29,042 nt of DNA from a virus (IMGVR_UViG_3300029911_000006); one strand, 5' to 3'. Counted from the first letter of the stretch, positions 2,589 through 27,247 are shown. The notes: generated from the sequence alone by a model not told the origin. Program-made: numbers and translations.

Positions 2589-2594
2589 GGCTAG

Positions 2595-2625
2595 AGTATA
2601 CCGGAGTCTAGTGCATCTTGAACAA
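2595..2625 (-). promoter_or_regulatory. promoter-like element TTGTTC-N19-GGTATACT, 6 nt upstream of the ATG of the 2175-2588 gene
   Basis: -10 at 2595-2600 and -35 at 2620-2625 on minus, with an AT-rich tract upstream; member of a recurring motif family. Confidence 0.4.
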
Positions 2626-2645
2626 TAAATTTAGAAAATTTTCAC

Positions 2646-2843
2646 TCAGCCCACTGTGACATTGACAACTCGGTTGTTTTCAATGCTTAGGTTGAGACGT
2701 AAAGGGTCGTAGTCACGAGTCACAATGAGGGCTCGGCCATCGACTTTGGTCACCCGGCTGGAGTATCCGTACCCCATGATTTGGTTCCGGGCATCATCCA
2801 GTGACAGACCGATGAACTTGGAAGGGTCAACGGCCAGAATCAC
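2646..2843 (-). CDS. hypothetical protein, 65 aa
   Basis: ORF track. Confidence 0.35.
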   Translation of the reverse strand: MILAVDPSKFIGLSLDDARNQIMGYGYSSRVTKVDGRALIVTRDYDPLRLNLSIENNRVVNVTVG

Positions 2844-2901
2844 TTTTTCTTCTTGGCCTTCGGTTTCTCAGGCTTGGTCAGCTTTTTGATTTCATGCTTC
2901 T

Positions 2902-3051
2902 TCATACGATTTCTCCAAAGAGACGCCTTAGGTATCCCCTGCGTACACCCCAGTCCAACCACAGTTGTTCAAGGTTTCGAATCCTGCCACGCATCCAGTC
3001 AGGCACTACCGGCGAGTCATCGCCAGCGGCCACACGGAGCAGCCACAACAT
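2902..3051 (-). CDS. small W-rich hypothetical protein; possibly the C-terminal part of a frameshifted gene that starts at 3126
   Basis: Track ORF 2902-3114. A 19-codon ORF (MSDHVEAILRAQAWERAKG) begins at the MazG stop and ends at a GGG run, where a -1 nt change would fuse the two frames. Confidence 0.3.
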   Translation of the reverse strand: MLWLLRVAAGDDSPVVPDWMRGRIRNLEQLWLDWGVRRGYLRRLFGEIV

Positions 3052-3126
3052 CTCATGCCCACTCTTCTTATCCCTTGGCACGTTCCCATGCCTGAGCCCG
3101 GAGGATAGCTTCAACGTGGTCGCTCA

Positions 3127-25002: not shown

Positions 25003-25045
25003 AATGCTTCTCCTAAAAGTTCAGGGTTGAAGGTTGATGGTTGAA

Positions 25046-26146
25046 CTACTTGAACGGGTCGATGTCGTCACTCGTGGAAGAGAACCCACCAGCCGGACGA
25101 GCCATGGGGACAGGAGCAGGGGACGAGATACCCGGAATCTGAATGAGGTCTGCACCAGCCGGTGCCGAGCCGGAAGTGAGGAGCTTCGCACTGAACTCTG
25201 CAAACTGCTGACGAGCGAGTTCCGCGTTGGCACCAGATTCAATCTGGTCGTTGGTAAGCAGCTTGTCGGTGAAGCGAGAGAAGTCACGAATCTCGCCCAA
25301 GGTACGAGACGTATCCTCTTCGAGGTAGTCCAGTGCCATATCGACCATCTGTTCCTGCTGAGAGTTGCCCTTGAGCAGACGCTGACCGATGCTGAGAGTT
25401 GCCTTCGCATCGAGAATCATCTTGCGCTGCGTGGTGAGGAAGCTGACCTTGTTCGCCGTCCGCTGAATCTTTGCGTCGGAGACCATCGACCACTGCTGGA
25501 AGGTGGTGAGAAGGTGCGAGGTGTCAGCTTCAAGAGCCTTCAACTGCTGCACGCCCTGAAGCAACATGCCAGCGTTCTCTTCATCGGTGCCCGACTGAAG
25601 GGTCAACTGCTGCTTCTTCATGGGGTCGGTTTCTGCTGCCGCCATCCTCGCGGCCTGTTGACTCATGGCGTAAGCCTTCTGAGCCTCAGCCTGTTTGGAG
25701 GCGATGTTACGCTGCAACATACTCTCAGAGCCAGCGAAACGCTGAACGGTTCCGTCGAGCGTGGCCTTCTCTTTACGCATGTCATCGAGGTTGTTGTTGA
25801 GAATCCCGATAGGGTCAATGGTAGTGTAGCACCGGGCGACCATACGCGAGAAGCTCTGGAAAGCGTTACTAATGACGGAGCGAAGGCCACCGAGAGGTCC
25901 GACGCCAAGAGCGATGGAACCCGCCGCAAGCAGGATGGCAAAGTAGGCAACCGACAGCACGGTGTTCTGCAACGTTTCTACGACAAAGGGAACAATCAGT
26001 CCCCAAAACCAGAACGTAGCAACGCAAGCAGCCGCAATGCCCGTGTAGATGAGACCCTTCCCGGCTCCGCCTTCAGGCCGCTGCCAGAAGGACTTCGGGG
26101 TGAATCCCTGAGGGACGCTAATGTATGGTGTCATGCCTGTGGACAT
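25046..26146 (-). CDS. membrane protein with two TM helices and a long coiled-coil region (366 aa from MSTGMTPYI)
   Basis: Internal ATG of track ORF 25046-26233 with an AGAAAGG RBS. Confidence 0.5.
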   Translation of the reverse strand: MSTGMTPYISVPQGFTPKSFWQRPEGGAGKGLIYTGIAAACVATFWFWGLIVPFVVETLQNTVLSVAYFAILLAAGSIALGVGPLGGLRSVISNAFQSFSRMVARCYTTIDPIGILNNNLDDMRKEKATLDGTVQRFAGSESMLQRNIASKQAEAQKAYAMSQQAARMAAAETDPMKKQQLTLQSGTDEENAGMLLQGVQQLKALEADTSHLLTTFQQWSMVSDAKIQRTANKVSFLTTQRKMILDAKATLSIGQRLLKGNSQQEQMVDMALDYLEEDTSRTLGEIRDFSRFTDKLLTNDQIESGANAELARQQFAEFSAKLLTSGSAPAGADLIQIPGISSPAPVPMARPAGGFSSTSDDIDPFK

Positions 26147-26177
26147 AGTGGGTGCCTTTCTCTTTGAAGGTTTGAAG

Positions 26178-26900
26178 TTACTTGGTAAGCATCGAGGCGA
26201 ACTGAGCCTTCTGCCCGTCGATTTCGGTACCACGCTTGGTCAACGCAGTGTTGAACGCCGTCTGAGTTCCAGCATCCTTCGCCTGTGCCGCCGCGAGGTC
26301 TGAAGTGACCTGCGTCTGCTCAGTCTGGAGAGCGGTAAGCTGCTGTGCGATGTCCGCCAGACGATTCTGACGTGCCGTGATTTCCTTGTCCTCGAACGCA
26401 CCGACCTTAGTTTTGAAGTTGTCCGCCGCTGTCGCCAGCGTGGTCTTGAGCGTGTCGAAAGTGTTGAGGATAGCGTCTTCAGTGATGTTGGCGTTTGCCT
26501 TCGCTTGAGCAACAGCGGTGCGGAACTTCAGGTTATCATCCATCGGCAGAGCTTTCAACGGCTCAAGGAACTTGTTGATGGTGTTCGCAATGTCGGTGGT
26601 GTCGAAGTTGGTCTTCGTGAAAAGCTTCTGGTAAAAGTCTTCGGCCTCAGCGGAGGATACTGGTGCCGCTCCACCCACGAAGGAAGAGAGTGTGGACGCA
26701 CCAGCAGGAGGAGGCGTGTAGGCCGCAGGAGCGAACGCGGGGGCAGTGCCAGCGGCAGATGAGCCGAAGGAGAAGGGGGATACAGCAGCAGCGGCGACCG
26801 GAGCCGGGGCTACAGGGACAGGAGTGGGGGCAGAGGGGTCGTCTTCAACCACCATGCTCTTGAGGGAGTCGAATAGGCTGTGGTGTTTCTGGTCGCTCAT
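26178..26900 (-). CDS. hypothetical protein with a Pro/Ala-rich linker and a C-terminal coiled-coil domain, 240 aa
   Basis: ORF track; AAAGGAA RBS. Confidence 0.55.
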   Translation of the reverse strand: MSDQKHHSLFDSLKSMVVEDDPSAPTPVPVAPAPVAAAAVSPFSFGSSAAGTAPAFAPAAYTPPPAGASTLSSFVGGAAPVSSAEAEDFYQKLFTKTNFDTTDIANTINKFLEPLKALPMDDNLKFRTAVAQAKANANITEDAILNTFDTLKTTLATAADNFKTKVGAFEDKEITARQNRLADIAQQLTALQTEQTQVTSDLAAAQAKDAGTQTAFNTALTKRGTEIDGQKAQFASMLTK

Positions 26901-27190
26901 ATGTTCCTTTCAATCGGGTGTATGTTGTCGGAGTTGATTCGGATGTTCATGTCAAAAACGCCGGGAGCCCCCAAGTACATGTACGGGCCGAAGACACGCA
27001 TGAACTCCCAGCCACTGAAGCGGGAGTAGCCTTCTTCATCCACAGGCAATTGTACAGGAGTGAGATTCTTCCTCGCAATCTCAGGCAACGCTTCACGCCA
27101 TGCGTGAGCATCAGCAAGGTACACAGACCTACCGAGTTCGGTAAGCTTGACCCACACTGAGTTGTTGATGTTGAAAGACAGCAAGCTCAT
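26897..27190 (-). CDS. hypothetical protein (97 aa from MSLLSFNINNSVW)
   Basis: Internal ATG of track ORF 26897-27238, 7 nt downstream of GTATACT; no SD. Confidence 0.4.
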   Translation of the reverse strand: MSLLSFNINNSVWVKLTELGRSVYLADAHAWREALPEIARKNLTPVQLPVDEEGYSRFSGWEFMRVFGPYMYLGAPGVFDMNIRINSDNIHPIERNI

Positions 27191-27247
27191 GTCCCGTAGT
27201 ATACGGGACGAATTTAGTTTTGGGAAACTATTTTTCAAGTAAAAATT

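Follow-up and report, generated by a model that had tools for sequence, protein, structure and literature searches.

A recurrent sigma70-like element set against start codons in an uncultured clade of jumbo phages: probable promoters of leaderless mRNAs and candidate attenuators of tRNA clusters

The viral DNA analysed here (IMGVR_UViG_3300029911_000006; 29,042 nucleotides (nt), the whole of which is called the window below) has a G+C content of 53% and carries its genes almost entirely on the minus strand. Those that can be recognised encode a split NAD-dependent ligase, HD and MazG hydrolases, a dGTP/dATP diphosphohydrolase fused to HNH, an ABC transporter, an OmpA-domain protein and seven tRNAs. 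Six copies of a promoter-like element, here named class I, lie on the minus strand of this window, each composed of phased A-tracts at about -54 to -40, a TTGTYC box, a 19-nt spacer and a -10 element, (G)G-TATACT or TATTAT. The window matches part of a 74.5-kb Joint Genome Institute (JGI) peat-metagenome contig (3300030688, Ga0311345_10000311) at 99.99% identity. Because its proteins are found again on contigs of up to 431,749 bp (the HD protein sits on the contig of that length), the window is part of an uncultured jumbo phage; a search of 25 kb for near-identical DNA among cultured phages gave no match. Joining three overlapping stretches yielded an extended sequence of 47.6 kb (M, where M position = 38275 - window position), so that about 48 kb of a genome of ~430 kb was covered. 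The copies of the element, including a seventh full copy that lies downstream of the window in the gene sense, are as follows.

s1, 2586..2645, minus strand: A/T tract 2626-2645, TTGTTC 2620-2625, 19-nt spacer, (GG)TATACT 2595-2600, 6 nt, ATG 2586-2588; position weight matrix (PWM) score 43.5
s2, 13612..13673, minus strand: A-tracts 13654-13673, TTGTTC 13648-13653, 19-nt spacer, (GG)TATACT 13623-13628, 8 nt, ATG 13612-13614 of the HD hydrolase gene; PWM score 41.6
s3, 21277..21371, minus strand: A/T tract 21352-21371, TTGTCC 21346-21351, 19-nt spacer, TATACT 21321-21326; PWM score 49.6
s4, 6842..6901, minus strand: A/T tract 6882-6901, TTGTTC 6876-6881, 19-nt spacer, TATTAT 6851-6856, 6 nt, ATG 6842-6844; PWM score 36.4
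s5, 27188..27248, minus strand: A/T tract 27229-27248, GTTTCC 27223-27228, 19-nt spacer, (CG)TATACT 27198-27203, 7 nt, ATG 27188-27190 of a 97-amino-acid (aa) gene; PWM score 29.1
ligA-N promoter, 12199..12260, minus strand: A-tracts, GGGTATACT with its -10 element at 12208-12213, 6 nt, ATG 12199-12201; PWM score 26.6
s6, outside the window, about 5.3 kb beyond window position 1 (M 43580-43870, L016 16700-17070): AAAAATAG-TTGTTT-19-nt spacer-TATTAT, followed by a leader with a Shine-Dalgarno (SD) sequence

An earlier note on this DNA had described the element at s1 to s5, and on re-checking all its coordinates and sequences proved correct: the spacer is exactly 19 nt and an A/T tract stands upstream at all five. 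The ATG codons at s1, s2, s4 and s5 do lack an SD sequence, as it had claimed, as does that at ligA-N, and s3 is indeed followed by a leader, its first ATG lying 27 nt past the -10 element. This leader bears an SD sequence and includes a 5-codon mini open reading frame (ORF) with its ATG at 21291-21293, the gene itself beginning with the ATG at 21277-21279. The gene behind s1 (2175-2588) is a 137-aa ORFan, for which a homolog search returned only the gene itself.

Comparison with shuffled sequence indicates that these copies form a genuine class. With up to two mismatches allowed, TTGTYC-N19-TATACT was observed 12 times as against 2.5 +/- 1.5 in shuffles, and 12 was reached in none of 100 shuffles; the exact matches number three, every one of them on the gene strand. 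GTATACT occurs six times, on the minus strand only, where 1.24 occurrences are expected. When spacers of 17-21 nt were compared, enrichment was seen for 19 nt alone (4 observed, 0.58 expected). The PWM that the earlier note had proposed was built from the sites; it scores them at 27-50 bits, far above the shuffle maximum of 14, and finds further copies. An ATG falls 6-8 nt past the -10 element at five of the six window sites (binomial P = 9e-7), and all class-I copies are intergenic and co-oriented with the genes. Since a scan for canonical TTGACA-N16-18-TATAAT showed no enrichment, the class-I motif is the main candidate promoter class here. Placing the -35 element in a 17-bp-spacer register, as GTTCAA, gives only two of six matches to TTGACA and was rejected; a GTATACT at 27446-27452 lies inside an ORF, has none of the upstream architecture and was taken as a chance occurrence. 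TTGAAC-N18-TTTATA before the ATG at 5046, which the earlier note had set beside these sites, has neither PWM support nor an ortholog and is dropped.

Homolog searches with the HD protein and with a 245-aa window protein led to further members of this uncultured jumbo-phage clade, whose contigs measure about 405-435 kb and come from metagenome samples of peat and other origin. The phages compared, with their loci, are listed here.

Phage A: the window phage, reference for the HD identities
Phage B: loci L076 and L095, 405-kb JGI contig, HD protein 63% identical to that of the window
Phage C: L081 and L096, Logan contigs, HD identity to the window 59%
Phage D: L079, JGI contig, HD identity to the window 63%
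Phage E: L080, Logan contig, HD identity to the window 44%
Phage F: L092, Logan contig, HD identity to the window 52%
Phage G: L097, GenBank metagenome contig, found through the pattern of the second tRNA leader described below

Strain-level variants of the window phage, being 99.9-100% identical, are uninformative for such a comparison and were set aside, as were distant IMG/VR relatives (L007-L015 and L024-L075, reached through a 499-aa protein, a phrog_2087 protein and the HD domain), which do not carry the motif.

The class-I architecture is present upstream of the HD gene in phages A, B, C, D and F, the four orthologs (L076, L081, L079, L092) keeping the promoter at 10 nt from the ATG. 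Upstream of the ligase gene it is found in A, B and C, and in L076 (-10 at 12298) and L081 (-10 at 9554) it comprises the full box, 19-nt spacer, GGGTATACT, 6 nt and ATG. The window copy at ligA-N lacks the TTGTYC box and has ATAACA in its place. For the s5 gene the architecture recurs in A and B (TATACT, 6 nt, ATG in L076, -10 at 862), and for the serine-rich leader behind s4 in A, B and E (TATTAT, 6 nt, ATGAAG in L076, -10 at 17758, and L080, -10 at 16580). The second tRNA leader has it in A, B, C and G. Copies also stand at the position of s1 in phages A, B and C, the correspondence there being positional, and in L095 (-10 at 9119) and L096 (-10 at 4261) TATACT is followed after exactly 6 nt by an ATG that is the called gene start. 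Copies that lay outside the matrix training or were fetched later scored 46.8 (L079, first matrix), 27.6 (L095 at 9119), 33.4 (L096 at 4261) and 27.2 (L097 at 1870). What is kept at orthologous sites is the -10 element, the 19-nt spacer and the short distance from -10 to ATG; the bases between them differ. The motif stands as a genuine promoter-like class: it is strand-specific and intergenic, and it is kept at orthologous loci in related phages.

Two cases that the earlier note had listed as related are likewise conserved in the relatives, namely ligA-N and a divergent signal on the plus strand.

Divergent promoter, 13689..13724, plus strand: TG-A-TAAAAT 13707-13715, 6 nt, ATG 13722 of the gene for a phrog_4776 protein

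Its orthologs in L076, L079 and L081 read TGTGnTA(A/G/A)(A/C)AT, 6-9 nt, ATG. On the pattern of bases this is a second type of putative promoter, with an extended -10 element, and would also be leaderless.

Nineteen class-I sites from six phages, representing about nine independent loci, were aligned for distances, and a logo was drawn from 17 aligned sites. Upstream, information peaks at A (-54 to -50), TT (-48/-47) and A (-43 to -40). These A-tracts lie, at the level of sequence, where the upstream (UP) element contacted by the alpha subunit of RNA polymerase (RNAP) is found, the UP consensus consisting of A/T tracts at about -40 to -60 with an A-tract near -41 to -43. In the box the logo shows TG at -36/-35, CC at -33/-32 and AAA at -31 to -29, so that the box may be written kTGkyC followed by AAA, spanning -37 to -29, with its TTG 19 bp rather than 17 bp from the -10 element. 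Further downstream stand T at -17, GG at -14/-13 (G at -13 always, at -14 usually) and TATACT at -12 to -7. The -10 element is TATACT or TATTAT at all 19 sites, with T-12, A-11, T-10 and T-7 invariant. The box changes in concert: the window phage has TTGTYC, and phages B, C, D and F have GTGkCC whether or not the sites are orthologous. A difference of hosts could account for this, as could a phage factor that evolves together with the box.

The distance from -10 to ATG is 6 nt at nine of the 19 sites, 7 nt at one, 8 nt at one and 10 nt at four, the last all being HD orthologs. The outliers are two leadered sites (27 and 38 nt, both with an SD sequence) and one anomalous orthologous pair (3 and 0 nt). 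At the ligase orthologs the intervening 6 nt are aaagac, tacagc and actggt, so the length is kept and the sequence is not. All 15 short-distance sites have an ATG start and no SD sequence, whereas one is present, by a crude test, at 61 of the 79 genes called across the 47.6 kb around them; most other genes in M carry GGAGG or AAGGA 5-9 nt before the start. The GG ahead of TATACT was considered as an SD sequence and rejected, lying 12-16 nt from the ATG compared with 5-9 nt for real SD sequences here.

That the annotated ATG is the true start is supported for the HD, ligase, s5 and divergent genes and for the serine-rich leader peptide. Protein alignments of the four genes begin at these ATGs, with stops or unconserved sequence upstream. 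The HD alignment starts MS(T/A)(G/S)ILEKAIRLA, and there are in-frame stops just upstream in two phages; the ligase N-terminus corresponds to profile position 9-10 of the ligase models; the 13722 protein matches its profile from residue 14, which is profile position 14; and the proteins of the s5 gene and its L076 counterpart align from the ATG. As to s4, the ATG 6 nt after the -10 element is translated, because the serine-rich peptide is kept despite changes of codon. With the ATG 6-8 nt past the -10 element (in relatives as many as 10 nt), the predicted start of transcription coincides with its A or lies no more than about 4 nt from it. The earlier note had drawn from such placements the implication of leaderless mRNAs. 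The placement itself is well borne out, with the distance kept while the bases change, ATG as the only start codon and conservation of the proteins from these ATGs, and from it we infer that the transcripts of the first genes would be translated as leaderless mRNAs.

In computational work a TA-like signal some 10 bp ahead of the start codon is accepted as a signature of leaderless genes; such genes, recognisable by a -10-like TAnnnT about 10-12 nt before the start codon, are common in Actinobacteria, Deinococcus-Thermus and Acidobacteria (PMC3160421). The genes discussed here share with them a -10 element 6-8 nt before the ATG, the lack of an SD sequence, the exclusive use of ATG and the position as first gene of a unit, internal genes using SD sequences; they differ in that class I adds a strong UP/box architecture, conserved as a set across a jumbo-phage clade. 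Acidobacteria are typical of peat, which is only a hint as to the host; a search for the host through the phage ABC-transporter ATPase in species genomes was uninformative, giving matches of at most 31% identity in unrelated phyla. Leaderless phage mRNAs are known, examples being lambda cI transcribed from PRM and the middle and late transcripts of Thermus phages phiYS40 and P23-45. Among jumbo phages whose transcriptomes have been mapped, phiKZ has no leaderless transcripts (PMC8244752) and AR9 has untranslated regions of 26-491 nt (PMC5312081). XacN1, the nearest cultured match for one protein, has canonical promoters with leaders. In contrast to phiKZ and AR9, the present clade would clearly exemplify the systematic use of leaderless mRNAs for the first genes of phage transcription units. 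There is also a practical side. Gene callers mis-set or miss such starts (the HD gene in L081, the divergent gene at 13722 and the leader peptides), and for this reason the motif can improve annotation.

There is also a looser signal, GTATTAn, placed 5-7 nt before the SD-less ATGs of MazG and dGTP-diphosphohydrolase genes without A-tracts or box and conserved between orthologs.

Looser -10-like element, 17686..17699, minus strand: TATTAT 17694-17699, 5 nt, SD-less ATG 17686-17688 of the dGTP/dATP diphosphohydrolase-HNH gene, A-tracts and box absent
Looser -10-like element, 3535..3548, minus strand: TATTAC 3543-3548, 5 nt, SD-less ATG 3535-3537 of a MazG-like gene
Looser-signal sites in relatives: L076 5552, L081 about 1075, L080 373 and about 8136

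The dGTP-diphosphohydrolase orthologs of L076 and L081 have TATTAG followed by 5-6 nt. That of L080 has GGTATTAT and then an 18-nt leader containing AAGGAG, behaviour which would be expected of a -10 element and so supports that assignment. For the L080 MazG homolog the order is a terminator, about 35 nt, GAGTATTTG, 6 nt and ATG.

Taken as a whole, the logo and the fixed geometry lead us to consider that the class-I sites are probably sigma70-family-type promoters of this uncultured jumbo-phage clade that would give rise to leaderless mRNAs, and the likeliest reader would be host RNAP with its housekeeping sigma factor. The features of a housekeeping -10 element (TAnnnT, A at -11, T at -7) are all present at the class-I sites, and the A-tracts stand in UP register. 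Several observations nevertheless weigh against this interpretation. The box matches TTGACA at only three of six positions, and its spacer of 19 bp exceeds the usual 16-18 bp; a spacing of this length suits E. coli sigma70 badly. At most sites in phages B, C, D and F the box has GTG instead of TTG, a bad change for a sigma70 -35 element. Several of the looser sites (TATTAG, TATTAC, TATTGG) are without the T at -7 that sigma70-type recognition needs. In the orthologous pair L076 (-10 at 6216) and L081 (-10 at 1746), GGGGTATACT stands 3 and 0 nt before a conserved ATG, and because it is so close this -10 element cannot give an mRNA holding that ATG. The pair (L076 6190-6230, L081 1720-1755) precedes a gene for a CxxC protein, and the gap of ~200 nt upstream contains a terminator and other conserved blocks. 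Finally, with about a tenth of the genome covered, a phage-encoded sigma factor, RNAP or sigma-remodelling factor is possible.

These properties of the box raise the question of whether it is addressed to host sigma region 4 at all. The sites may be promoters whose kTGkyCAAA box (-37 to -29) is read by a phage-encoded factor, such as an activator with a sigma-remodelling protein (as MotA and AsiA of T4), a phage sigma factor or a covalently modified RNAP, and the class would then be a phage-specific and probably non-immediate-early regulon. The box lies 2 bp beyond the -35 position and yet is rigid, with a 19-nt spacer at almost every site; the concerted change from TTGTYC to GTGkCC is what co-evolution with a phage-specific reader would lead one to expect; there is no enrichment of canonical sigma70 promoters; the distant cultured relative XacN1 does use TTGACA-N17/18-TATAAT; and T4 middle promoters provide a precedent for a phage box joined to a host -10 element (PMC2988021). 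However, no homolog of MotA, AsiA, a sigma factor or RNAP was found among the approximately 40 window proteins scanned with Pfam and PHROGs (~10% of the genome), the UP-register A-tracts and good housekeeping -10 element could suffice for unmodified host RNAP, the window site at ligA-N functions, if at all, without a box, and a differing box could simply mirror differing hosts. On this evidence we regard a dedicated phage factor as unlikely. The rigid spacing and the concerted change from TTG to GTG at least offer a handle on who reads the upstream element.

It is instructive to compare class I with the promoters of T4. T4 early promoters have an 'uber' UP/-35/TGn/-10 organisation and are read by unmodified host sigma70 RNAP (PMC2988021). 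Class I shares with them A/T-rich UP-like tracts in register with the -10 element, a TTG-type box, a near-consensus -10 element and many copies heading nucleotide-metabolism, ligase and tRNA transcription units. It differs in its box, which is TTGTYC or GTGkCC and not TTGACA or GTTTAC, and in the ATG, which lies 6-10 nt past the -10 element and would leave no 5' untranslated region. From both T4 early promoters and E. coli rrnB P1 it is set apart by a spacer of 19 bp instead of 16-18 and by GG at -14/-13 instead of TGn. The rrnB P1 promoter combines an UP element with a TTGTCA -35 element, and the upstream tract of s1, GAAAATTTTCTAAATTTA-TTGTTC, resembles the corresponding rrnB P1 sequence, AGAAAATTATTTTAAATTTCCTC-TTGTCA. 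T4 middle promoters, which depend on sigma appropriation, carry a MotA box, (a/t)(a/t)(a/t)TGCTTtA, centred at -30 and 12 +/- 1 bp from the -10 element (PMC2988021). With these, class I has in common a 9-bp phage-typical box above an excellent host-type -10 element, the box being variable and the -10 strict. Its consensus and spacing are not those of a MotA box: the box is centred near -33 with 16 bp from the 9-mer to the -10 element and has TGTYC where the MotA box has TGCTT. The UP-like tracts are retained, and MotA/AsiA homologs were not seen in the window. Class I is therefore closest in design to T4 early promoters and, for the box, to T4 middle promoters, while its spacing and consensus fit neither.

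If the class-I sites are promoters, their placement would have a consequence for translation. Terminator-like sites were not seen ahead of s1 or s5, and because of this and the lack of an SD sequence the same ATG within a read-through transcript would be poorly translated; expression of the first gene would thereby be tied to the firing of its own promoter. At s3, which is leadered, a strong inverted repeat of about 21299-21338 on the minus strand (CCCTCTTGTC...GACAAGAGGG; -29.6 kcal/mol, z = -7.6 for the stretch 21297-21340) brackets the -10 element and the predicted start site, and its right arm contains the SD sequence of the leader. This hairpin would hide the SD sequence in read-through RNA, and its left arm would be absent from RNA begun at s3, so that s3 may reach the same promoter gating by another route. 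The repeat could also serve as an operator. A second hairpin, GTCCCGTA-TAC-TACGGGAC at 27191-27209 on the minus strand, spans the -10 element of s5 (z = -5.5), and hairpins with 3-nt loops are centred on L076 -10 elements as well (about 855-875 and 1330-1348; TCGGTA-TAC-TACCGA, z = -2.0). A hairpin across the -10 element was rejected as a general feature of the class, being significant only at s3, s5 and the L076 -10 element at 1337, with a mean z of -0.6.

Such hairpins bear on a different explanation, in which G-TAT(A/T)nn is a signal at the RNA level, acting on read-through polycistronic mRNA as an endoribonuclease site, where cutting would leave a leaderless message, or as an A/U-rich, SD-independent ribosome loading element; its likeness to a -10 element would then be secondary. 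It could draw on the hairpins that span the element at s3, s5 and L076 1337, on GTATWn sequences 0-8 nt before SD-less ATGs even where there are no A-tracts or box (one of them, L076 5552, inside the upstream coding region of overlapping genes), on the distances of 3 and 0 nt at L076 6216 and L081 1746, and on the terminator-like sites, none of which is reported upstream of s1 or s5, so that read-through RNA should exist. Set against this, the class-I sites keep 50 bp of upstream architecture with fixed spacing, which is needless for an RNA signal at the ATG, and the values for its distance to the ATG cluster sharply at 6 nt, as between a -10 element and a start site. Moreover, in the leadered copies (s3, s6 and the dGTP-diphosphohydrolase ortholog of L080) the element is retained at 18-38 nt from the ATG and is joined by an SD sequence, and the hairpins are not general. 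An RNA-level role thus appears very improbable.

It may also be asked whether the copies are mainly repeated cassettes for recombination or gene shuffling, with promoter activity incidental, the model being the PeSL (promoter-early stem-loop) cassettes of T4-type phages. Both s1 and s5 occupy an intergenic gap of exactly 57 nt, s4 and s6 have spacer sequence in common (TTTCGAACT, TTCCGAACT), some copies bear stem-loops, and the gene after s1 is an ORFan. But the copies share consensus positions only, no long repeat being evident in the site alignment (no dedicated repeat search was made), and the sites are kept before conserved genes (HD, ligase, tRNA leaders) across phages whose proteins have diverged by ~40-50%. 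A cassette origin would in any case be compatible with promoter function, and as the main explanation we hold it to be the least probable of all. The promoter interpretation provides, for an uncultured jumbo-phage clade, a testable model with a logo and fixed geometry.

We now turn to what s4 and s6 precede. The earlier note had described a Ser leader peptide at ATG 6844. The product is indeed rich in serine; the reading frame has the appearance not of an ordinary gene but of a 25-codon attenuator leader ahead of tRNA-Ser genes.

Ser leader ORF, 6767..6844, minus strand: MKNTLSISSSSTSSSSWTGGGVVNV*, 25 codons, leaderless by its placement, fed by s4
Intrinsic terminator, 6699..6728, minus strand: AAAGCCGCCC-AACTC-GGGTGGCTTTTT, between the leader ORF and tRNA-Ser(gga) at 6606-6695
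Candidate Ser attenuator, window 6606-6901, minus strand: orthologs at L076 17700-18010 and L080 16520-16720
Second attenuator candidate, outside the window, L016 16700-17070: orthologs at L095 19330-19570, L096 14830-15120 and L097 (reverse strand) 1850-2160

Behind s4 the order is Ser leader, terminator, tRNA-Ser(gga) and then tRNA-Ser gct, cga and tga. The serine run of the leader uses all six Ser codons, and the peptide (MKNTLSIS...S-run...GGG) is kept in A, L076 (B) and L080 (E) with different Ser codons. An antiterminator can form instead when the left arm of the terminator pairs with a stretch of Gly codons, GGCGGCGGC, in the leader ORF; three phages show covariation in this pairing (GGCGGC:GCCGCC, GGUGGC:GCCACC and GGCGG:CCGCC). 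Rfam recognised only the tRNAs, the Ser leader having no family match, and exact-pattern scans for the leader in viral and metagenome collections, which evidently lack this clade, found none. A 47-aa ORF (6841-6984) overlaps the Ser leader and could be coupled to it through an ATGA overlap; in phage B no ORF was called overlapping the leader at this position.

At s6 the promoter is followed by an SD-led ORF, MTLKQTNSKRGMWQQHNRRSTGLCLSHGRVKIT, a terminator and tRNAs Trp(cca), His(gtg), Arg(ccg, acg, tct), Asn(gtt), Gln(ctg) and Lys(ctt, ttt). The codon run of this second leader, AAG CGG TGG CAG CAG CAT AAT CGC CGC (K-R-W-Q-Q-H-N-R-R), is cognate to the downstream anticodons ctt, ccg, cca, ctg, gtg, gtt and acg. 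The core KRGMWQQHNRRSTGLC and the terminator are conserved in four phages, the terminator stems covarying (CCCTAGCC...GGCTAGGG as against CCCAGCC...GGCTGGG), and a scan with the pattern of the second leader gave one extra contig, L097. Phages B and C have, between the tRNA-Trp and tRNA-His genes of this cluster, a histidyl-tRNA-synthetase-like gene of 167-191 aa that looks truncated (L095 19800-20375, L096 15422-15925).

A regulatory-codon ORF, an intrinsic terminator and a mutually exclusive antiterminator are thus found in silico at both loci, which makes s4 and s6 candidates for promoters that drive tRNA clusters through ribosome-mediated leader-peptide attenuators. The textbook attenuators (trp, his, leu, pheA, pheST) likewise consist of a short regulatory-codon ORF, an intrinsic terminator and an antiterminator that the ribosome would mask. 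In contrast to these, the candidates at s4 and s6 would control tRNA genes and not biosynthetic or synthetase genes, they are phage-encoded, and one leader peptide is itself apparently leaderless. Moreover, the codon run matches the downstream tRNAs, with six Ser codons for four tRNA-Ser and K-R-W-Q-Q-H-N-R-R for Trp, His, Arg, Asn, Gln and Lys. A full-text literature search returned no report of leader-peptide attenuators ahead of phage tRNA clusters, and these look more novel than the promoter itself. If confirmed, they would represent a new way for phages to regulate their own tRNA supply.

A more far-reaching proposal would unite these elements in a phage-specific module, comprising a displaced, co-evolving box read by phage-directed or remodelled RNAP, promoter-gated translation of the first gene, with an SD sequence masked by a hairpin of the read-through RNA in the case of s3, and tRNA-sensing attenuators. 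We consider it possible but doubtful in this complete form. If it were true, the phage would sense charged tRNA pools and switch on its own tRNA genes only when these pools run short, for example on depletion or cleavage of host tRNA.

Several neighbouring genes deserve mention in their own right. The ligase is split over window 7452-12201 into a gene for the Nlig-Ia domain (11809-12201) and the remainder (7452-9326). The halves are ~2.5 kb apart. Between them the minus strand has three small ORFs, and the plus strand has genes for a GIY-YIG endonuclease (9356-9994) and an ART-PolyVal ADP-ribosyltransferase (10273-11055) with an ORF of 56 aa between these two. In relatives B and E the ligase is a single intact protein, of 721 aa and 699 aa respectively, and the split looks like gene splitting by a mobile endonuclease cassette. 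The dGTP/dATP diphosphohydrolase gene (321 aa, window 16723-17688, minus strand) encodes a fusion of the N-terminal domain with an HNH endonuclease domain; phages B and E have orthologs of about 150-158 aa that are without the HNH part, and the gene of phage C is called short (122 aa) and is not comparable. A tRNA-Ile with anticodon UAU (4261-4355, minus strand) is called at 95 nt, the length of a tRNA with a long variable arm, and overlaps the 3' part of a plus-strand HNH ORF (3603-4322). The 224-aa product of the divergent gene (13722-14396, plus strand, phrog_4776) has full-length homologs of 41-42% identity, 105 of 110 records belonging to cluster-L-type Mycobacterium and Gordonia phages; this affinity is odd, the other best matches of the window phage being proteobacterial phages. 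Lastly, L027, an unrelated IMG/VR phage of 36% G+C, has its own five-fold recurrent promoter between 3480 and 12870, AAATAG-TTGTTTAC-N18-TATAAT-GTCTTATCA, which resembles promoters of the T4 early type.

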